A stretch of 64,000 nucleotides of DNA from Dehalococcoidia bacterium (GCA_965261945.1 CBDHEF010000002.1:591327-655326); one strand, 5' to 3'. Shown: positions 24,671-57,078, numbered from the stretch's first letter. Translations and numbers: made by a program. Notes: generated by a model from the sequence alone, not told the origin.

Positions 24671-24734
24671 GGCAGTCAGACTTTTAAGACAGTCCTGTGA
24701 GGCTGGCAAAGTAGGGCGTCCCGGATGCTTCCCC
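24671..24734 (+). promoter_or_regulatory. pyr leader with PyrR binding-loop box
   Basis: AGUCCUGUGAGGCU (24691-24704) matches the Bacillus PyrR-box consensus ARUCCAGAGAGGYU (from memory) at 12 of 14 positions. It lies 60 nt upstream of a strong terminator and 150 nt upstream of pyrR. Confidence 0.6.
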
Positions 24735-24764
24735 GGCGCATATATCGAGCCGGGGCCGTCCGTA

Positions 24765-24797
24765 CCCCCTTGCCCCTCGGGAGGCAAGGGGTTTTTT
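24765..24797 (+). terminator. Attenuator terminator of the pyr leader
   Basis: CCCCTTGCC (24766-24774) ... GGCAAGGGG (24783-24791) followed by TTTTTT (24792-24797). Confidence 0.75.
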
Positions 24798-24852
24798 GTT
24801 ATGTTGCTGAACCTTGTCTGGGGATCAAAATAAATCAAGCCGGGAGACGGTC

Positions 24853-48205: not shown

Positions 48206-48736
48206 GTGGCGCTTTCGGCCCCTTTGCAGAAAACAATGCAGCTTCAACTCAATGGCGTTTGCCTGCGATTCCTAATTCTCGCACTGCTGGCTCTAGCATC
48301 TGCCTGCGGTGGAGAGACCGCGCGGGATTTCGAGGTGGAGTTGTTCGACGGCGGGCGGTTCCGGCTGTCCGAGCAGTATGATGGGAACGTGGTGGTGGTC
48401 AACTTCTGGTATCCCAGTTGCGCTCCCTGCCGCGATGAAATGCCGGAGTTTCAAAAAGCCTGGGAAGAATTGGACGGGGACTCGGTGCGCTTCCTGGGGC
48501 TGTTCGTGCCGCGAGGCTTTGACACCGAGCAGGCGGCGCGGGAATTCGTGGCGGACTTGGGGCTTACCTTCGACTTCGCCACCGACCGGCGGGAGACCAT
48601 CGCCACGGCCTACGGCATCGAATTCTACCCGACAACCTGGTTCATAGACCGGGGAGGACGGGTGGCGGCCACCCACGTCAGCGCCCTCGACGCGGGCCGA
48701 ATCACCGGTATCGTGCGTGAGCTGAATGGCCAATAG
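48206..48736 (+). CDS. TlpA/ResA-like thiol-disulfide oxidoreductase lipoprotein
   Basis: Lipobox LASAC-G and thioredoxin-fold active site WYPSCAPCRDEMP. The start is uncertain (GTG 48206 or ATG 48236). Confidence 0.8.
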   Translation: MALSAPLQKTMQLQLNGVCLRFLILALLALASACGGETARDFEVELFDGGRFRLSEQYDGNVVVVNFWYPSCAPCRDEMPEFQKAWEELDGDSVRFLGLFVPRGFDTEQAAREFVADLGLTFDFATDRRETIATAYGIEFYPTTWFIDRGGRVAATHVSALDAGRITGIVRELNGQ

Positions 48737-48778: not shown

Positions 48779-49270
48779 ATGTCAATGGGCGTATTAGACT
48801 GGATCCTAGTTGTAATACGATGGGGGCACGCGCTGTCGGCGGTGGCCTGGGTCGGTGGCGGCGCCTTCTACCTGCTGGTGCTGCGTCCGGCCATCCGGCG
48901 CTCGCAGGGGCTGCCGCCTGAAACCGGCGCGGCTATTCGAGACGAGTTCCGGGGGTTGGTTACAACCGCCATCGCCGTGCTGCTGCTGACCGGCGCAATC
49001 CTGTCGGTGGCGAGGCTGACCGGGGATGCGGCGACAGTTCCCTACGCAATTGTTCTCGGGGTGAAAATCACGCTGGCGCTGTATATGTTCTATGTGGTGC
49101 GCTTCGTGCGCCGGGGCGACTATGGAGACCGTGAAGATACGGGAGGCAGCTGGCTGAGGCGCGCCGTCCAGCGCCTGACCACCCCGATGGCCCTGCTGGT
49201 CATAGGAATAGTGGTCATCGGCCTGTCCGACGTGTTGGACGCGCTGATTGAGGACGCGCTGGTTTCCTGA
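48779..49270 (+). CDS. Four-TM membrane protein, CopD-like (putative)
   Basis: RWGHALSAVAWVGGGAFYLLVLRP resembles the CopD H..a..W.GG motif. Four hydrophobic helices are present. Confidence 0.5.
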   Translation: MSMGVLDWILVVIRWGHALSAVAWVGGGAFYLLVLRPAIRRSQGLPPETGAAIRDEFRGLVTTAIAVLLLTGAILSVARLTGDAATVPYAIVLGVKITLALYMFYVVRFVRRGDYGDREDTGGSWLRRAVQRLTTPMALLVIGIVVIGLSDVLDALIEDALVS

Positions 49271-49301
49271 CGGCGCCAGGAATCGAAAGGAGTTGTGTAG
49301 C

Positions 49302-49493
49302 TTGAAGAAAGACCTGATGGAGATACTGGCCTGCCCGGTGTGCAAGGGCGAGCTGGAACTGAGGGTGGAAGAGGAAGAGGGCGACGAAGTGGTGGCGGGT
49401 GCATTGTTCTGTGCCGCCTGCGATGAGTCCTATCCCATTGAGGACACCATTCCCAACCTGTTGCCGCCGGAGCTTCGCCGTCAACTGGCGTAG
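49302..49493 (+). CDS. Trm112/UPF0434 family zinc-ribbon protein
   Basis: AGGAG RBS before TTG 49302. LACPVCKGEL......L.C..C...YPI.D.IPNLL. Confidence 0.75.
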   Translation: MKKDLMEILACPVCKGELELRVEEEEGDEVVAGALFCAACDESYPIEDTIPNLLPPELRRQLA

Positions 49494-49583: not shown

Positions 49584-49634
49584 CCCTCTCCCTTGGAATG
49601 CGGTAGGGGAGAGGGCGTTTCCCTAACCCTCGCC
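49584..49634. repeat. REP-like repeat (composite copy) overlapping the 3' end of the selenoprotein candidate
   Basis: CCCTCTCCC-N14-GGGAGAGGGCG-TTTCCCTAACCCTCGCC. The last codons (..GEG) and stop of the minus-strand gene lie inside it. Confidence 0.6.
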
Positions 49635-50165
49635 CGTGAGTACCTGTACGACCAGCGGGGCCAATTGCTCGGCGCGGGAGCGCAGGGCCTCGCGGCTGAG
49701 GTTCTCGATGGGGTGTTCGGTGTAGATTGTCGGGTAGTCCGGTGCGCCCCACATCCGGGCCATGCCGGTGGCCGTCGGCACGAAGCGGTCGGTGCAGATG
49801 GTGGCCGAGGGGATGCCGGCGTTCTCAACGTGGATTCCGTCGTGCACACTGCACGCGCTGCAAGACCCTCAATCGCCGATAGCGATGATCACGGAATCGC
49901 ACTCCTGCGCCAGTTCCGCGATGGCCGCGGGGTCGGCAGGCCGCGAGGCGCTTGGCTTGCGGTGCCACTTGACGCTGGTAATTTCGTATCTTGTCCGCAG
50001 CAGGTCTGCCAGTTCCTCCAGCAGCACATCGGCGTTGCGCTTGCTGTCGTCGATGAGGCCCAGCCGGGTACCGGCCAGACTTGCCAGGCGCGGGGCGCCG
50101 TTGAATGGAGCGATCACCGGCTGCGTTACCGGATTGACCAGAACGTGCTCATTGGTCTGGACCAT
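49623..50165 (-). CDS. Candidate selenoprotein (UGSC-motif protein) with in-frame UGA at 49869..49871
   Basis: ORFs 49869..50165 and 49623..49847 share one frame. They are separated only by TGA plus 7 sense codons. Read-through gives 180 codons: ...CDSVIIAIGD-U-GSCSACSVHDGIHVENAGIPS... A hairpin follows the UGA. Confidence 0.6.
49841..49855 (-). other. Candidate bacterial SECIS hairpin
   Basis: On the minus strand, CGUGCA-GUG-UGCACG (6-bp stem with a GUG apical loop) starts 13 nt 3' of the UGA. Confidence 0.4.
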
Positions 50166-50187
50166 AGCTCTCTCCTGACAATTGGTT

Positions 50188-50215
50188 CCCTCTCCCCTTG
50201 GGAAAGGGTTAGGGC
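50188..50215 (+). repeat. REP-like intergenic repeat
   Basis: CCCTCTCCCCTTGGGAAAGGGTTAGGGC lies between the 352-aa gene and the selenoprotein candidate. Confidence 0.6.
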
Positions 50216-50222
50216 TTTCTCC

Positions 50223-51281
50223 TCAGCGTATCACCTTGGTCACAGCTGTGCTGCCCACTTTGGGCCCCCAACTGGGGATCACTGACGACATATTGGATTC
50301 CTCGCCGCCAGCGAAGACCAGGAGTATGTCGGAAGGGCCGGGAATCAGCGGTACCGTGGTGGATTCATCGCCCAACTGCAGGTCGCCCGCCAGTACCTGC
50401 GCCAGTTTCAGCTCCGCAGTCGTGCGCTTGGCCCGCTGGAAGATGAAATCGCGTATCTGCTCCTTGCTCCAATCCTTCCACAACCCCGAATTGCCAGCGA
50501 TTGTAACCACAATCTGACCTTGCCGTACACCAGTCCCGGTCTCACCTACTGAGCCTGACGTGGACATGTTGGTGCCCAGAGTCGAGGCAACATCGGAGAT
50601 GGCGAGGAGTATCGCCTCCGGGCGGCCCACGGCGCGCACCTGCCGGGGCGACTCCCCGGCGAACACGGTCACCGCGCTCTGCTCCAGCTGCAAGCCGCGC
50701 TCTACGTGCAACGGCGTCCAGTGAGTCTCGGTCTCCGCCTCGGCGATGCAGTAGGTGTACTTGCCGGGATGCCCGATGACGCTGCGGTCGAACACGCCGG
50801 GAATGGCGGCGCAGGCGTTCATCAGGACGAGGCGGATGGCCCGGCCGATGGTGGCGTTGGCCCGGTTGCCCGGCCCGAACAGGTTGTTGCGGGCGTTGAT
50901 GTTCAGCTCCCGCACCACCGGGCCGTTGACGATGGTCAGGATGGCCGAGCCGCCCATACTGGACGACGGCCCGACGAGGTTGAACACCGGGTCAAGCATT
51001 GCCTCGGTGGCGGTCAGCACCACCGGCATATACTCCGGCAGGCACCCGGCCATCACCGCGTTGGCCGCCACCTTGCCCACCGTAATCTCGCGCCTCCGCT
51101 CCGGCAACTCGCCGACCACTTCGCCCGCCGGACGCCCCGTCTGCTCAATGAACTCCGCGACGCGGGCCTCCGTTGGAGGCACAACGGGAAGGCCGTCGGT
51201 CCAGCCAAGCTCGTAGCACCGCTCGATGGCTTCCAGCGCGCTGTCCCACTGGACGGTTGTGGTTTCGCCGATTTCACTCAA
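50223..51281 (-). CDS. Conserved-looking hypothetical protein (352 aa)
   Basis: Long ORF with native GC, TTG start and a GAGGAG RBS. Motifs include ELGWTDGLPVVPPT and AANAVMAGCLPEYMPVV. I cannot name a family. Confidence 0.65.
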   Translation of the reverse strand: MSEIGETTTVQWDSALEAIERCYELGWTDGLPVVPPTEARVAEFIEQTGRPAGEVVGELPERRREITVGKVAANAVMAGCLPEYMPVVLTATEAMLDPVFNLVGPSSSMGGSAILTIVNGPVVRELNINARNNLFGPGNRANATIGRAIRLVLMNACAAIPGVFDRSVIGHPGKYTYCIAEAETETHWTPLHVERGLQLEQSAVTVFAGESPRQVRAVGRPEAILLAISDVASTLGTNMSTSGSVGETGTGVRQGQIVVTIAGNSGLWKDWSKEQIRDFIFQRAKRTTAELKLAQVLAGDLQLGDESTTVPLIPGPSDILLVFAGGEESNMSSVIPSWGPKVGSTAVTKVIR

Positions 51282-51297: not shown

Positions 51298-52278
51298 TTA
51301 AATTAGCTCTTGCAGGCGGGGTGTAAACACTTTACGAAACAGAAACAATTTTTGGACCATCCAATCTTGGAACTCGTCCCAAGATTCCGTGTCTTGGAAC
51401 ACATTGCCGTCGCGGTAAATGGCTACCCGGGTGTGCCGTTTCTTCCCTGCGGCAGGTTCCCAAGCATCCCATTCGTCCAGCTTAGAATCCACTAGGGCCA
51501 CCCCAATGCTTTCTCTGTCTTGCTCCAATGCCTGAAAGATCATTTGGTTCCACTGAGGCCCTTCGTCTCCCCTTTTGTCTACATACAACTCAAGTCCCGG
51601 CTTGCCGTCGTGCCAAATAGCCGCGTACCAGGCGCGACTTAACGGATGCTCAATGACGATATACCGGGCAGGGCTCAGACGTCTATATGCACGGACGAGA
51701 ATCCCGTTTCCCCGCATCTTTTCGACTAGACTCAGACGAAAGGTGCGGCTCAGCTCGTGGCGAGGCGACAAAGGATCTTGCCGGGACGACGACTGCACTC
51801 TACTCTTGCGCCATTCGTTCGGAGTGGCAACTACCTTGAAATAAGGGGCGTAGGGAGAGTTACCGATCTTGAATAACTCGACCACCACTCCAAAGAACTC
51901 GGTATCCTCGCCAGTGCGCTGGTTGAGCCAATCCAGCGCCTGACGGTGTTCGTCGCGGAACTCGCGTGTCAGCCAGACTATCACGTTGGCGTCATACCCG
52001 GCGGCGTAGGTCAGTAGCTTGCCCAAGTGGTCGTGATTGGTTTGTTCGAGCTGATTCTCGATGATTACTGGGCGGTTCTGATTAAGGTCTGTCGCCAGCA
52101 CGTCCAGCGAATAGCCGCCTACTGCCGCCTCTGTTTGCTGTAGCTCCAGGTCCATCCCGAGCGCTTCGCCCAACTCGGCTATGTTTTCGGCCAACCACGG
52201 AGTGAAATCCTGCGCCTCGTTGGGCCAGGCTTCGCGCAGGTCAACCCGCTCGATTTTCGCCAGGTTCGGTGTGGTCAT
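51298..52278 (-). CDS. PD-(D/E)XK nuclease-fold / DUF4268-like protein
   Basis: The N-terminus reads W.NEAQDFTPWLAENI..LG..LGMDLEL.QTE..VGGYSLDVLATD......VIIENQLEQTNHDHLGKLLTYA (restriction-endonuclease-like D...E.Q/K core). The C-terminal half (FFGVVVELFKIGNSPYAPYF) resembles DUF4268. The region is low-GC. Confidence 0.65.
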   Translation of the reverse strand: MTTPNLAKIERVDLREAWPNEAQDFTPWLAENIAELGEALGMDLELQQTEAAVGGYSLDVLATDLNQNRPVIIENQLEQTNHDHLGKLLTYAAGYDANVIVWLTREFRDEHRQALDWLNQRTGEDTEFFGVVVELFKIGNSPYAPYFKVVATPNEWRKSRVQSSSRQDPLSPRHELSRTFRLSLVEKMRGNGILVRAYRRLSPARYIVIEHPLSRAWYAAIWHDGKPGLELYVDKRGDEGPQWNQMIFQALEQDRESIGVALVDSKLDEWDAWEPAAGKKRHTRVAIYRDGNVFQDTESWDEFQDWMVQKLFLFRKVFTPRLQELI

Positions 52279-52592: not shown

Positions 52593-53546
52593 CTACACCC
52601 GCCGATACTTGGAGAGGGAGCGGAGTTCCTGCGGCGGGTTGCGGTGCTGGCCGCGGATGGTGTAGGAGACCTCGGCGACGTAGATGTCGCCGTGGGAGTC
52701 TACGGCGATGCCGTGGGGGGCGATGAACTGGCCGCCGCCTTCGCCCTCGTCTGCGGAGCCGAACATAGAGACCCGGTTGCCGCTGAGGTCGTAAATCGAG
52801 ACGCGGTGGCCGAGGCCGGGGGCGTCGTCAACGCCGCCCATGCCGTTCAGCTCGCCCACGTAGATATGCTCGCCCCACAGCACCATTGCGTCGGGGCGGT
52901 GGATGTTGCTCCACATGGTGATGAAGCTGCCTTCGGCGTCGAAAATCTGAATCCGGTGGGCTTCGCGGTCCACCACGTAGACCCGGTTCTCGCTGTCAAT
53001 GGCGATGTTGTGGGGGCGGATGAACTGGCCGGCGTCAATGCCGGGGCTGCCCCATGAGAACTTGTACTCCCTTTCGGTGGAGTAGACGTGAATACGGGAG
53101 TTGCCGTAGCCGTCGGAGACATAGATGTCGCCGTTGCTGGGCATGATGGCGGCGGAGGTTGGGCGGTTGAACGGCTCGCCGCTCCAGCGGCCCGCCGGGT
53201 TGTTGCGCTCGCCCAACTCCCAGACCTTCTCGCCGCTGGCGCTGAACTTCTGGATGGTGTGAATCCCGTCGTCGGCGGCCAGCACGGAATCGTCGTGGCC
53301 GATGTAGAGGCCGTGGGTGCGGTTGTCGCTGAACAGCCCCTCGCCGAAGGAACGCACATAGTTGCCGTCGCGGTCGAAAACCATGATTGGATTCTTGCCG
53401 CGGGTCAGCACGAAGACGTTGTCGCTGGAGTCACAGGCCACGCCGGGGCATTCCTGGAAATTAACGCCGTCGGGCAGTTTGGCCCAGTCCTCGACGAATT
53501 CGTATCGAAAATCACCTACGCCGTAAACTTCTGGCATTCTTATCAT
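52593..53546 (-). CDS. NHL-repeat beta-propeller protein (peptidyl-alpha-hydroxyglycine alpha-amidating lyase-like)
   Basis: Repeated ..G.F..P.GIA.D..G.IYV.D....RI..F blades (e.g. GQFIRPHNIAIDSENRVYVVDREAHRIQIF, GQFIAPHGIAVDSHGDIYVAE). No signal peptide. Confidence 0.8.
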   Translation of the reverse strand: MIRMPEVYGVGDFRYEFVEDWAKLPDGVNFQECPGVACDSSDNVFVLTRGKNPIMVFDRDGNYVRSFGEGLFSDNRTHGLYIGHDDSVLAADDGIHTIQKFSASGEKVWELGERNNPAGRWSGEPFNRPTSAAIMPSNGDIYVSDGYGNSRIHVYSTEREYKFSWGSPGIDAGQFIRPHNIAIDSENRVYVVDREAHRIQIFDAEGSFITMWSNIHRPDAMVLWGEHIYVGELNGMGGVDDAPGLGHRVSIYDLSGNRVSMFGSADEGEGGGQFIAPHGIAVDSHGDIYVAEVSYTIRGQHRNPPQELRSLSKYRRV

Positions 53547-53609
53547 CCTTTCGTAGCGGATTTGCCGGGCCGCACAGACAGACTTCCGGCGGCGGGCAGG
53601 GGTAATCGT

Positions 53610-53644
53610 AAGCCCGCCCTATTGGAGTGTCAACGGGCGGGCTT
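53610..53644 (-). terminator. 10-bp hairpin downstream of the VOC gene
   Basis: AAGCCCGCCC (53610-53619) / GGGCGGGCTT (53635-53644). Confidence 0.45.
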
Positions 53645-53658
53645 CTGGGGCTTTGCGG

Positions 53659-54032
53659 TCAGTAGGACGCGCTTGGGTCAGACTGGTGGAAACCGATTGG
53701 GTTGCCTTCGGTATCCTGGCAGATGGCGTTGTAGCCAACTCCGGGAATGGGTATCTTTGGCTGGACTACCGTGCCGCCCCCTCCTGGATTCGGGGCAGGT
53801 ACTGATCGATGGCCTCAACGTCAACGTAATTCATGCCCTTCATGCCGTGGGGTGGGCGTCGGGTGATTGCGCGATTGATGCCGGGACCGTCGGTGCCTGT
53901 CGACACCAGCTGGAAGTCCATTTGCGGAGGACCGTCCCGCCGGGTGATCTCCCGGCCGAACAAGTCGGCGTAGAACTTGTGAGCGCGGTCCACATCGTCG
54001 CCGTAGATATCGAAATGTACGATCCTCGGCAT
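53659..54032 (-). pseudogene. Glyoxalase/VOC-family gene with a 1-nt frameshift (or assembly error) in a C/G homopolymer
   Basis: The N-terminal frame reads MPRIVHFDIYGDDVDRAHKFYADLFG...QYLPRIQEGAAR and then stops. The next frame continues GGTVVQPKIPIPGVGYNAICQDTEGNPIGFHQSD, a typical VOC C-terminus. The shift is at the CCCCC run near 53766-53772. Confidence 0.6.
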
Positions 54033-54097
54033 GGTTACTCCAATTTGTCGCAACGTTTTCCTTGATCAGCAAGGCCAGGAAAATGACCCAATCGCAC

Positions 54098-54128
54098 TGT
54101 AGGGGCGGGTTTCAAACCCGCCCCTACA
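54098..54128. repeat. 31-nt near-perfect palindrome TGTAGGGGCGGGTTT-C-AAACCCGCCCCTACA
   Basis: 15-bp arms. It lies downstream of the GMC oxidoreductase stop and is related in its GTAGGGGCG core to the hairpin at 47215. Confidence 0.6.
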
Positions 54129-54172
54129 CTTTGGCCAGATGAATCAGGAGACGGTCCCTATTCGCGGCGCCA

Positions 54173-55771
54173 CTATCTTATGGAGTCGCGGCCCTCGCCC
54201 TTGAGAAAGTCGGCGGTGCGGAGAGCGAGCGCTTGAATGGTGGACGTGGGATTGATGCAGGCGCTGGTGGTAAAGATGCTGCCGTCGACGATGAACAGGT
54301 TTGGCACGTCGTGGCAGCGGCCCCAGCGGTCTACCACCGAGTTGCCGGGGTCTGTCCCCATCCTCGCCGTTCCCAGCAGGTGCCAGCCGGCGTTGCGGCG
54401 CAGGCGGGATGTCATAATCTGCTTGGCGCCGGCGGCTTCCATCACTTCCCTGGCCCGCTCGACGCCGTGATCCAGCATCCGGTTGGTGTTTTCGCTGACG
54501 GTATACTCCACCTTGACTGCCGGGATTCCGTTGCTGTCCGTGTCGTTGGGGTCGAGGGTGACCTGGTTATGCGCTTCGGGCAGGTCTTCGGTCATTATGG
54601 TGATGCCGACGGTGTGGCCGAAGCGTTCATCGAATGCCCGGTGGTGTCCCTCGCCCCACGGAATCCGCTCACCCAGCAGCCCGCCGAGGGCCGTGGGCAG
54701 CGGGGAGCCGCCGAGGGCGAGGATCTGAAGGTCGTAGCCGCGCACGAAGCCCCGGCTGGTATCGGTCTCGTAGAATTCCTGGCTGAGCATTGTGCTGCCG
54801 CGAGGGAAACCGTCCTCGGTGCCCAGCCATTCGTCGAATACGCCGACCACCACGCCCGCGGGATGGTGCATCAGGCACTTGCCCACCAAGCCGCTGCTGT
54901 TCGCCAGCCCGTCCGGGAACAGCGGCGACGTCGAGTTCAGCAGCAGTCGCGGCGTGCCGATGCCGTTGCAGGCCATGACCACCGCCTTGGCCTTCTGCTC
55001 GATCAGGTTGCCGTCGGCGTCGTAGTACAGTACGCCGGTGGCTTTCCCGGAACTGTCAACCAGTATCTCACGGACGCGGGCGTTGGTTTTGAGCCGCGCG
55101 CCCAGTTCCAGGGCCTTTGGCCAATAGGTCAGGTCGGTGCTGGCCAGGGAGCGCAGGTATCCGCCGGAGTCCGGCTCGCGACCGTCGTACTCCACCGACG
55201 GAATGGCGGTGTCGGCGGCCCACCAGTGCCAGCCCAGCTTGTCGAAGCCCTTGGCCAGGGCCTGGCCGCCTGGCCTGATGGACAGCGGAGGGCAGGGCCG
55301 CTCGGGCTTGGGCGGATAGGCCGGATCGCCACGGAGACCCGAAACGCCCATGATTCGGTCGTTCAGGTCGAAGTATGGCTCCAGCTCATCGTAGGTCAGC
55401 GGCCAGTCGTCGGCCACGCCGTCCAATGTCCGCACCCGGAAATCGGAAGGATGGAAGCGCGGGTAGTGCGAACCGTAGTGCACCGTGCTGCCGCCTACCG
55501 CGTTATACATATACGGCGCGATGGGGGAGGCGTCGCTGTTGACCGGGTAGTCCTCCGGTAGCCGGCGCACACTGGGATCCGGGTGGAAATCCGTCTGCCA
55601 GTGGAGCTGGCTGTCGGCATTGGTGGCCGGGAAGGCATCGCGGGCCACCCAGTCGCCCTGCTCGAGGCAGAGGACGTCGATGCCGGCCTCGGCCAGGCTC
55701 CAGACCAAGGCCGCGCCGGAAGCTCCTGCCCCGATTACCAGCACGTCGGGGATGTCTTGGTTGCTTGCCAT
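54173..55771 (-). CDS. GMC-family FAD-dependent oxidoreductase
   Basis: N-terminal DVLVIGAGASGAALVWSLAEAGIDVLCLEQG and a C-terminal GMC signature region (HLLGTARMG...NLFIVDGSIF). Confidence 0.9.
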   Translation of the reverse strand: MASNQDIPDVLVIGAGASGAALVWSLAEAGIDVLCLEQGDWVARDAFPATNADSQLHWQTDFHPDPSVRRLPEDYPVNSDASPIAPYMYNAVGGSTVHYGSHYPRFHPSDFRVRTLDGVADDWPLTYDELEPYFDLNDRIMGVSGLRGDPAYPPKPERPCPPLSIRPGGQALAKGFDKLGWHWWAADTAIPSVEYDGREPDSGGYLRSLASTDLTYWPKALELGARLKTNARVREILVDSSGKATGVLYYDADGNLIEQKAKAVVMACNGIGTPRLLLNSTSPLFPDGLANSSGLVGKCLMHHPAGVVVGVFDEWLGTEDGFPRGSTMLSQEFYETDTSRGFVRGYDLQILALGGSPLPTALGGLLGERIPWGEGHHRAFDERFGHTVGITIMTEDLPEAHNQVTLDPNDTDSNGIPAVKVEYTVSENTNRMLDHGVERAREVMEAAGAKQIMTSRLRRNAGWHLLGTARMGTDPGNSVVDRWGRCHDVPNLFIVDGSIFTTSACINPTSTIQALALRTADFLKGEGRDSIR

Positions 55772-55837
55772 CTCATTTCTCCGCTGTTGTAGTCAATCCT
55801 ACCTAACGGAACGGATTGCCGTGGCCGGCCTGTCTAT

Positions 55838-55873
55838 CCCCTCTCCGTCTGGGACGGGGTCAGGGTGAGGGCG
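55838..55873 (+). repeat. REP-like intergenic repeat
   Basis: CCCCTCTCCGTCTGGGACGGGGTCAGGGTGAGGGCG. Confidence 0.6.
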
Positions 55874-55878
55874 ATCCT

Positions 55879-57078
55879 CTAACCGCGCTCGAACACTGCG
55901 GCCACGCCCTGACCTCCGCCCACGCACATGGTTTCGAGGCCGAACTGGGAGTTGCGGCGCTCCATCTCGTGCAGCAGGGTGGTGAGGATGCGGGCGCCGG
56001 TGGCGGCTATGGGGTGGCCCAGCGAGATGCCTGAGCCGTTGACGTTCAGGTTGTCTTCGTGAGGCAGCTTCCACTCGCGCAGAACCGCCAGCACCTGGGC
56101 GGCGAAGGCTTCATTCAGCTCGATCAGGTCCATATCCTCGAGCGACAGGCCGATCTTTGCCATTACCTTGTTGACCGCCGGCACCGGGCCGATGCCCATG
56201 GTCGCCGGGTGACAGCCGGTCACGGCCCAGCCGCGCAGGAAGGCCATCGGGGTCAGCCCCAACTCCTCCAGCTTATCCTCGGCGACCACCAGACACACCG
56301 ATGCTGCGTCGTTCTGGCTGCTGGCGTTGCCTGCCGAAACCGAACCGTCGCGCATCACCGGGCGGAGGCGGGCAAGGGCTTCCATAGTCGTGTCGGCGCG
56401 GGGTCCCTCATCGCGCTCGAAGGGCGCCGGGTCACCGCGTCGCTGCGGGACTGGGATAGCCACGATCTCGCCGTCAAACCTGCCCTCGGTCTGGGCGGCG
56501 ACGGCTCGCTGGTGGCTTCGGAGGGCGTATTCGTCCTGCTCCTGGCGGGAGATTTCGTACTCGCGGGCCAGGTTCTCGGCGGTCTCCACCATGCCGCCTG
56601 GTATGGGGCCGAAACGCTCGTCGGGCGAGATGGTCACGCGGGCGCGGGCCAGCCGGTCGTGAAAGGTTACGGAGCCGTAACGAGCGCCCCAACGGGACTC
56701 GTTGCTGTAGAACTCGGCGCCGCTCATGCTCTCGACGCCGCCCGCAATGACCACATCGGCGTTGTCGGTCTGCACCAGCATACTGGCGTTCAGGATGGCC
56801 TGAAGGCCCGAGGAGCAGCGGCGGTCCAGTTGGTAGCCCGGCACCTCGATGGGCAGGCCGGCTTTGAGCGCGGCCAGCCGCCCGATGGCCGGGTTCTCGC
56901 CACTGGGATAGCCGTGGCCGAGAATAACGTCGTCGACCTTGGCCGGGTCGAGTTGCGAACGGTACAGGGCTTCCTTGATGACCGTGCTGGCCAACTCGGC
57001 GGCCGAGACATCCCGCAGGGCGCCGCCGAAGTTTCCAACGGCAGTGCGGACAGGTGAGACTATGGCAACGCGACGCAT
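55879..57078 (-). CDS. Acetyl-CoA C-acetyltransferase (thiolase II)
   Basis: Active-site Cys region [12 protein letters not shown] plus the C-terminal [17 protein letters not shown] and CVGGGQG. Confidence 0.95.

Follow-up and report, generated by a model that had tools for sequence, protein, structure and literature searches.

The stretch of DNA considered here is a 64,000-nucleotide (nt) portion of the assembly of a Dehalococcoidia bacterium (GCA_965261945.1 CBDHEF010000002.1:591327-655326; hereafter the window). On its minus strand, at 49623..50165, it carries what we read as a complete gene for a selenoprotein of the UGSC family. The frame opens with an ATG (50163-50165), reaches an in-frame UGA (49869-49871) after 98 sense codons and closes with a TAG (49623-49625), giving 180 codons including the UGA. 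An AGGAG sequence on the same strand (50172..50176), 6 nt 5' of the ATG, resembles a Shine-Dalgarno sequence and may act as one. By comparison with homologues the UGA, presumably read as selenocysteine (Sec), specifies residue 99, the first residue of a U-G-S-C motif. The codon for Cys102, the putative resolving cysteine of that motif, lies at 49860-49862, and the codon for Cys105 at 49851-49853, within the stem of a candidate selenocysteine insertion sequence (SECIS), a 20-nt hairpin at 49838..49857 (minus strand). A second gene on this strand (50223..51281), encoding a protein of 352 amino acids (aa) that belongs to an unannotated domain family, lies 57 nt upstream and is referred to below as the partner gene. 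Because gene callers take UGA as a stop codon, two open reading frames (ORFs) were reported at the UGSC locus, the second restarting at a GTG (49845-49847) that is separated from the UGA by only seven sense codons (G-S-C-S-A-C-S). The original prediction, made from the sequence of this locus, held that an ORF caller had split a single 180-codon read-through frame, and both sequence and translation bear this out, with a product that reads ...VIIAIGD-U-GSCSACSVHDG... across the junction.

Family membership and conservation of the UGA codon

A family named for the UGSC motif, cited in the original prediction, does exist, and the gene fits it across both halves. When Sec was replaced by Cys for profile queries, the read-through protein scored 161.3 bits against the NCBIfam model NF041046, 'UGSC family (seleno)protein' (curated cut-off 125), and 196.3 bits against the Pfam model PF24696, 'UGSC' (cut-off 25). 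The latter match aligned residues 21-177 with model positions 15-171 of 172 and spanned both ORFs. In the Global Ocean Sampling (GOS) selenoproteome survey, the 'UGSC-containing protein' was a major selenoprotein family with a UxxC motif and with 255 Sec-containing as against 21 Cys-containing forms (PMC2398784), and a 2026 review places NF041046 among the selenoproteins whose functions are still 'largely uncharacterized' (PMC13188914). The window gene shares with the family described in the Sargasso Sea and GOS surveys of Zhang and Gladyshev its motif, its size of about 180 aa, the alternation of Sec and Cys at one column, and an origin in aquatic, uncultured bacteria, with no family-defining difference between them (PMC2398784). 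It is an ordinary member of a known, functionally uncharacterised family that has been catalogued since 2005-2008 and whose name NCBI's model would itself assign to it, and is not new. What is added to the family here is the SAR202/Dehalococcoidia lineage, a SECIS delimited by synonymous-site constraint, a flavodoxin-like predicted fold, and an obligate partner gene.

A search for homologues returned 93 proteins, about 85 of them 99-100 aa long and stopping exactly at ...IGD, together with one full-length match, P0051, that has Cys at the Sec column. Cys also occupies this column in about 55 full-length homologues that form a second branch and read GIGD-C-GSCS. Within this Cys-type branch the cysteine three residues after the Sec/Cys column (C98 of P0051) is invariant, while Cys105 is present in the Sec-type members and in some Cys-type members. 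A family-wide profile search gave 4093 clusters at 50% identity.

A locus scan with tblastn, restricted to one genome per species, found 80 loci matching residues 1-180, all of them in Dehalococcoidia, SAR202 or Chloroflexota metagenome-assembled genomes; the closest relative was OZ245439.1 (L001), a 4.03-Mb chromosome, at 98% identity. The Sec column is TGA in 80/80 of these loci and in six more distant ones (L081-L086; 53-58% N-terminal identity), for a total of 86/86 SAR202-type loci, and TGA stands at the column again in the further Sec-type lineages L093/94, L096, L100 and L101. Comparison of this column among homologues, which had been proposed as a check on the prediction, found TGA or Cys at exactly the position of the UGA. 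Elsewhere in the window TGA closes 14 of the 43 long ORFs; since it is thus an ordinary stop codon, genome-wide reassignment can be set aside and recoding is local to the UGSC site. A scan of the whole window (62% GC) for other TGA-interrupted frames turned up nothing recognisable besides the UGSC gene. The real terminator of the UGSC gene, among 81 aligned sequences, is TAG in 49, TAA in 30 and TGA in 2. This proportion of TGA (2/81, compared with 14/43 among the long ORFs of the window) could reflect avoidance of a second UGA or simply shared ancestry.

The part of the frame that lies beyond the UGA is translated. All 81 of its codons stay in frame and are 78-98% conserved, with changes that are mainly synonymous and with no frameshifts or extra stops, so that the downstream part is conserved in the fused frame, as the original prediction had required of a genuine selenoprotein gene. 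Of the seven codons that separate the UGA from the GTG, codons 100-103 change only synonymously in the codon alignment, through GGG/GGC/GGA, all four UCN codons, UGC/UGU and AGU/AGC. These codons must therefore be translated, a result that for practical purposes excludes both a pseudogene and a pair of separate genes, as discussed below.

Immediately 5' of the UGA (49872..49874, minus strand), the codon for Asp98 is GAU in 81/81 sequences of the codon alignment and in all 86 SAR202-type sequences, whereas elsewhere in the gene most Asp columns favour GAC. The corresponding codon is GAC in the deep-branching Sec-type L101 and in the Cys-type L087, so that the invariance is lineage-wide and not family-wide. 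It may reflect a requirement for sequence context or a local effect on UGA recoding.

The hairpin 3' of the UGA and the decoding of the codon

The hairpin has a core stem of 6 base pairs (bp), CGUGCA-GUG-UGCACG (49855-49841), that begins 13 nt 3' of the UGA, as had been noted in the original prediction and as a reading of the sequence upheld. Its GUG loop (49849-49847) begins 19 nt 3' of the UGA. RNAalifold, applied to 26 diverse members, chose this stem and added two pairs to it, G-C and Y.G, that span a bulged A. The evidence that this element is under selection at the nucleotide level comes from codon usage. Among 141 well-conserved degenerate codon columns in the 81 sequences, only seven are invariant, and six of these are consecutive (GCG UGC AGU GUG CAC GAC, residues 104-109), the seventh being GAU98; every other degenerate codon 3' of the UGA varies. 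At the other synonymous columns, pairs of sequences share a codon 51% of the time, and a run of six invariant columns did not arise in any of 1e6 permutations. The 20-nt element delimited by RNAalifold (49857-49838) coincides with the invariant codon block.

Bacterial SECIS elements have been modelled as hairpins with a loop of 3-9 nt, a stem of 4-16 bp, a distance of 16-37 nt between UGA and loop, and a minimum free energy of at most -7.5 kcal/mol, and as having a G at one of the first two places in the loop, most often as GG or GU (PMC13188914). The window hairpin falls within all four of these descriptions, having a GUG loop, a stem of 6-8 bp, a spacing of 19 nt, and an energy of -7.6 kcal/mol for the core or -9.7 kcal/mol when extended. 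Together with the nucleotide-level selection, this agreement with the published model upholds the earlier proposal that the hairpin is a SECIS. Both the bSECISearch consensus and the element of E. coli fdhF are likewise hairpins within coding sequence just 3' of the UGA. The window element differs from that of fdhF in that the two have no sequence similarity, its loop is at the minimum size of 3 nt, and its bulged A lies on the 3' side; the fdhF SECIS has a bulged U.

The hairpin is further linked to the Sec-type state of the column. The stem and a loop starting with GU are kept in the four further Sec-type lineages, L093/94, L096, L100 and the deep-branching L101, where residue changes preserve the pairing: Ala is replaced by Ser or Thr through NCG codons, and Val by Met, giving a GUA loop. 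By contrast, none of 15 Cys-type loci has the stem with a GU-started loop. Locus L095 (478-532; a single 532-nt contig) has no hairpin beside its TGA, the surrounding sequence being of the Cys type, and probably represents either an error or a true pseudogene. A separate lineage, seen in L114 (P0001) and P0002, has CGA (Arg), one transition from TGA, at the Sec column, and reads GD-R-S-SC, with Ser replacing the next Gly. The hairpin sequence of L114 is fully intact. Since this lineage occurs in two separate assemblies, it is probably not a sequencing error, and it may represent a loss of Sec in favour of Arg with the SECIS kept as a relic.

A number of observations speak against a SECIS and Sec insertion at this site. 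The folding energy of the 66 nt 3' of the UGA is no more favourable than that of shuffled sequences (z = +0.98), and thermodynamics alone therefore cannot support the hairpin. Compensatory double substitutions number zero, all core stem pairs being invariant and only one-sided C/U.G changes being seen in the extension. The lack of covariation follows from the fact that the stem never varies, and the case for pairing is made by conservation, energy and the association with Sec as opposed to Cys. The sequence of the stem is also partly dictated by the residues C-S-V-H-D that it encodes, and no Rfam SECIS model was matched, either at the gathering threshold in the window or at E <= 10 on 49600-50000. 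One Cys-type locus, L102 (553-600), retains the stem, with a CCA loop, possibly as a relic of a recent Sec-to-Cys conversion. Finally, tRNA-Sec, selA, selB and selD were not found in the window, where not every ORF was annotated, or across the related loci (about 2 Mb). The window gave no tRNA at all, the related loci gave no tRNA-Sec, and an approximate selD probe had no match in the 2 Mb of related sequence. As 2 Mb covers too little of any one genome, the absence of Sec genes was not counted against Sec insertion. The SAR202 literature offers an indirect hint on selenium use, SelA and SelB being common in sponge-symbiont bins. That 86 genomes retain the UGA, a translated frame beyond it and the SECIS would be hard to explain if these bacteria did not have Sec machinery.

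Four other explanations were weighed against this evidence. The Cys-type homologues are one base change from TGA, and the gene could in principle be a pseudogene in which TGA arose by mutation of a Cys codon (TGC or TGT) and the sequence beyond it is decaying; the short contig L095, with its TGA and no hairpin, may be such a case if it is not a sequencing error. For the window gene the chance of this is negligible: TGA is kept in 86/86 loci of different species, the 81 downstream codons show the conservation described above, and the hairpin is under nucleotide-level selection, which together effectively refute it. Only marginally less improbable is that the locus holds two genes, for a 98-aa protein and for a 74-aa protein re-initiated at the GUG (49845-49847), with the conserved nucleotides serving as the re-initiation signal. 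Just this pair of ORFs is given by ORF callers and public annotations, either one having a partial match to the UGSC Pfam model, and the GUG does lie inside the invariant block. However, the seven codons that would then go untranslated encode the invariant G-S-C-S-A-C-S with varying third positions and align with GSCST(N/C)S of the uninterrupted Cys-type proteins, no Shine-Dalgarno-like sequence precedes the GUG, and L101 has AUG as the Val codon in an otherwise identical arrangement.

The remaining alternatives accept that the UGA is read through or that the block is structured. Near-cognate decoding might insert Cys or Trp at the UGA, or a tRNA(Sec) loaded with Cys might read it, with the hairpin stimulating read-through and nothing else. 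The sequence does not by itself decide which residue is inserted, the Sec machinery of the source genome was not seen in the material covered, and the CGA lineage retains the hairpin. Nevertheless, this is very unlikely, as the loop content and spacing fit a SECIS of the SelB type, the homologues that do not have UGA have Cys at the column in a classic Sec/Cys pair, UGSC has been catalogued as a selenoprotein family in several surveys, and TGA otherwise serves as an ordinary stop in the window. It is also unlikely, if somewhat less so, that the invariant block is explained by a different fold, in which a GUGCA loop is closed by the pairing of positions 9-12 and 14-16 with positions 22-28 (counting the U of the UGA as 0). 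This fold appears in the minimum-energy structure of the single sequence, with a pairing probability of 0.4-0.6 compared with 0.24-0.37, and its pairs survive the C/U changes at positions 11 and 14. It is weaker on its own, though (-6.7 kcal/mol, versus -7.6 for the core and -9.7 for the extended hairpin), it does not account for the invariance of the synonymous sites C29 and C32, and its loop starts 14 nt from the UGA, short of the 16-37 nt that the SECIS model requires. RNAalifold prefers the 49855-49841 stem, and the 5' arm of the alternative is altered in L096 (UGCUCAACG), where the hairpin of the 49855-49841 type is intact.

We therefore favour, with a probability of roughly 0.92, a single functional UGSC-family selenoprotein gene of a Dehalococcoidia/SAR202 (Chloroflexota) bacterium, in which UGA is decoded as Sec with the help of a hairpin in the coding sequence. 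The candidate selenoprotein of the original prediction is supported in this respect by the family match, the Sec/Cys column, the translated downstream part and the hairpin. E. coli fdhF is the experimental prototype of SelB/SECIS decoding. By analogy, SelB in complex with Sec-tRNA(Sec) would bind the hairpin and bring Sec to the ribosome, and selenium would be inserted at residue 99.

Predicted fold and the upstream partner gene

Comparison with PDB by sequence and by profile gave no relative of the UGSC protein, and the natural Cys-type homologue P0051 was used as the structure query. Its AlphaFold2 model (predicted local distance difference test score, pLDDT, 91.5) is a parallel beta-alpha-beta sandwich of the flavodoxin-like kind. 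The loop that joins strand 3 to helix 3 holds the Sec/Cys position, and the motif's second Cys lies one turn along that helix. The best PDB matches given by Foldseek were generic flavodoxin-like proteins (WrbA, flavodoxin, SpaF and lumazine synthase), all with a template modelling (TM) score below 0.5. Thioredoxin-fold proteins were absent from the top 50 Foldseek matches listed, and there was no thioredoxin match in Pfam. A 'Trx-like fold' had been suggested in the GOS paper (PMC2398784); in view of the flavodoxin-like model and the generic flavodoxin-like matches, that suggestion is not supported. The thioredoxin-fold UxxC/CxxU selenoproteins (SelW-like, Prx-like, Trx-like and DsbA-like) likewise have Sec-x-x-Cys at the N-terminus of a helix and a Sec that is exchangeable with Cys, but differ from the flavodoxin-like sandwich predicted for UGSC.

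Weak local similarity was also found to selenoprotein B. Residues 85-159, including Sec, aligned with positions 333-401 of the GrdB model (E = 9e-5), and this similarity around the Sec hints at a distant kinship. Scores against the selenoprotein B models TIGR01917, TIGR01918 and NF040794 were below the cut-offs (21.6 vs 602.2, 17.8 vs 65.45 and 15.1 vs 800 bits, respectively), so that UGSC does not qualify as a member of the GrdB/GrdF/PrdB family. Like UGSC, the proteins of that family (GrdB, GrdF and PrdB; TIGR01917/TIGR01918) have a UxxC-type motif; their substrate-handling subunit is a separate protein encoded by a neighbouring gene, as is proposed for UGSC. They are more than twice as large as UGSC, however, and the organisms of UGSC are not amino-acid-fermenting anaerobes. 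The UGSC partner, moreover, has no detectable similarity to Pfam, NCBIfam or PDB families, which should include GrdE and PrdA.

No relative of the partner protein was found in Pfam (E <= 10), in NCBIfam or among PDB sequences, even with a diverse 15-sequence profile. At least 7997 of 8000 scored candidate homologues were significant, and none of the 120 that were listed has a name. The partner gene is found upstream of UGSC on the same strand in 85 of the 86 SAR202-type loci, and as the lone exception begins at a contig edge, it is present in every locus where it could be looked for. Across 85 species 121 of the 352 residues are invariant, including C80 (in NAVMAGC), C157 and C178, and the protein carries the motifs DGLPVVPPT, NAVMAGC, FGPGxRANATIGR and PGKYxxCIAE. 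Homologues of the partner, 37-40% identical, also precede the Cys-type UGSC genes, which are followed by a CxxC protein of about 90 aa and by a protein of about 710 aa that consists of two partner domains. The contigs of these Cys-type genes also hold TctC, TonB-dependent receptors and GntR, and one cluster member is named Betaproteobacteria.

The partner domain thus occurs singly, in tandem duplicate (the form of about 710 aa), and fused to UGSC. Fusions of UGSC and the partner were found in P0298, P0336, P0407 and P0388, and fusions of both with the CxxC domain in P0329 and P0343. UGSC is joined to the CxxC domain in P0285, P0288 and P0321 and to a thioredoxin-reductase-like flavoprotein in P0364. 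The partner may be the 'Unknown_1' domain that was reported fused to UGSC in the GOS survey. Given their adjacency across phyla and these fusions, there is strong evidence, drawn from gene arrangement, that UGSC and the partner work together.

A working model for the function can be built on these associations. The Sec99-x-x-Cys102 pair would probably cycle through a selenenylsulfide, with UGSC acting as the selenol/thiol redox subunit of a two-part enzyme and the 352-aa partner as its substrate-handling subunit. The fusions suggest a flow of electrons from NAD(P)H through the flavoprotein and the CxxC domain to UGSC and on to a substrate bound by the partner. Points against this model are that it is built on gene context only, that the GrdB score is far under its cut-off (21.6 vs 602 bits), and that the AlphaFold2 model of the partner, made from a shallow alignment, is of low confidence (pLDDT 45). 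We would give about even odds that UGSC is a flavodoxin-like alpha/beta module whose most likely role is that of redox subunit in a two-part enzyme with the upstream protein. The broader proposal, that UGSC is not a stand-alone redoxin but the redox subunit of a widespread and wholly uncharacterised enzyme system defined by the partner domain, is put forward tentatively, at slightly less than even odds.

Genomic surroundings and significance of the gene

Several features of the surrounding DNA were recorded. A G+C-rich palindrome, CCCTCTCCC...GGGAGAGGG, occurs in three copies (2776-2798, 49584-49615 and 50188-50208), two of which bracket the UGSC gene, one in the spacer between partner and UGSC and one 8 nt after the stop codon. 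As no T-run follows them, the palindromes are not canonical terminators, and they may be intergenic elements resembling repetitive extragenic palindromic (REP) sequences. In about a quarter of the SAR202-type loci, the partner and UGSC genes are separated by an insert of about 700 nt encoding a Cys-rich DUF1326 protein (CNCDWGCPC; PF07040, 125 bits), as in L029 (9225-9899) and about 25 other loci; the window does not have this insert.

Upstream of the partner, genes for a thiolase, a GMC oxidoreductase and an NHL/six-bladed propeller protein (52593-57078, minus strand) are co-directional with the partner and UGSC, and the order thiolase-GMC-NHL-partner-UGSC is kept in 70-80 of the 86 loci, the most distant ones among them. 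A gene for a 326-aa DUF4268 protein (51298-52278, minus strand) is inserted between those for the NHL propeller and the partner, and is found at that place in only 27 of the 86 related loci. On the other side, and convergent with UGSC, is a Trm112-like zinc-ribbon gene (49248-49493, plus strand) that scored 102 bits against NF038101, Trm112_arch (cut-off 77), an archaeal-named model matched here in a bacterial genome. A ResA/TlpA-like thiol-disulfide oxidoreductase with the Cys motif WYPSCAPC (48206-48736, plus strand) has weak matches to the WAxxUGC_long and SelL-related NCBIfam models and shares synteny with UGSC at 68 of the 86 loci. Since both flanks of the gene are syntenic among relatives, this wider gene order was not counted as functional evidence. 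Farther away, a PyrR-binding leader (24677-24799, plus strand; RF00515, 57.6 bits against a threshold of 54) lies just 5' of an ORF that starts at 24814 and is the sole Rfam match in the window.

The window gene is a textbook selenoprotein gene that ORF callers cut in two, and the same has befallen its relatives, whose public entries are almost all 'hypothetical proteins' of about 100 aa ending at ...IGD. The use of selenium in SAR202 and Dehalococcoidia is therefore under-reported in current annotations. UGSC is among the most abundant selenoprotein families of aquatic metagenomes, yet it is uncharacterised. A sharply delimited and extremely conserved SECIS, and an obligate, unannotated partner that is fused to UGSC in some lineages, provide defined starting points for experimenters. 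If the proposed two-part enzyme is real, SAR202 bacteria, which are abundant in the deep ocean, would possess a selenium-dependent reductase acting on an unknown substrate.

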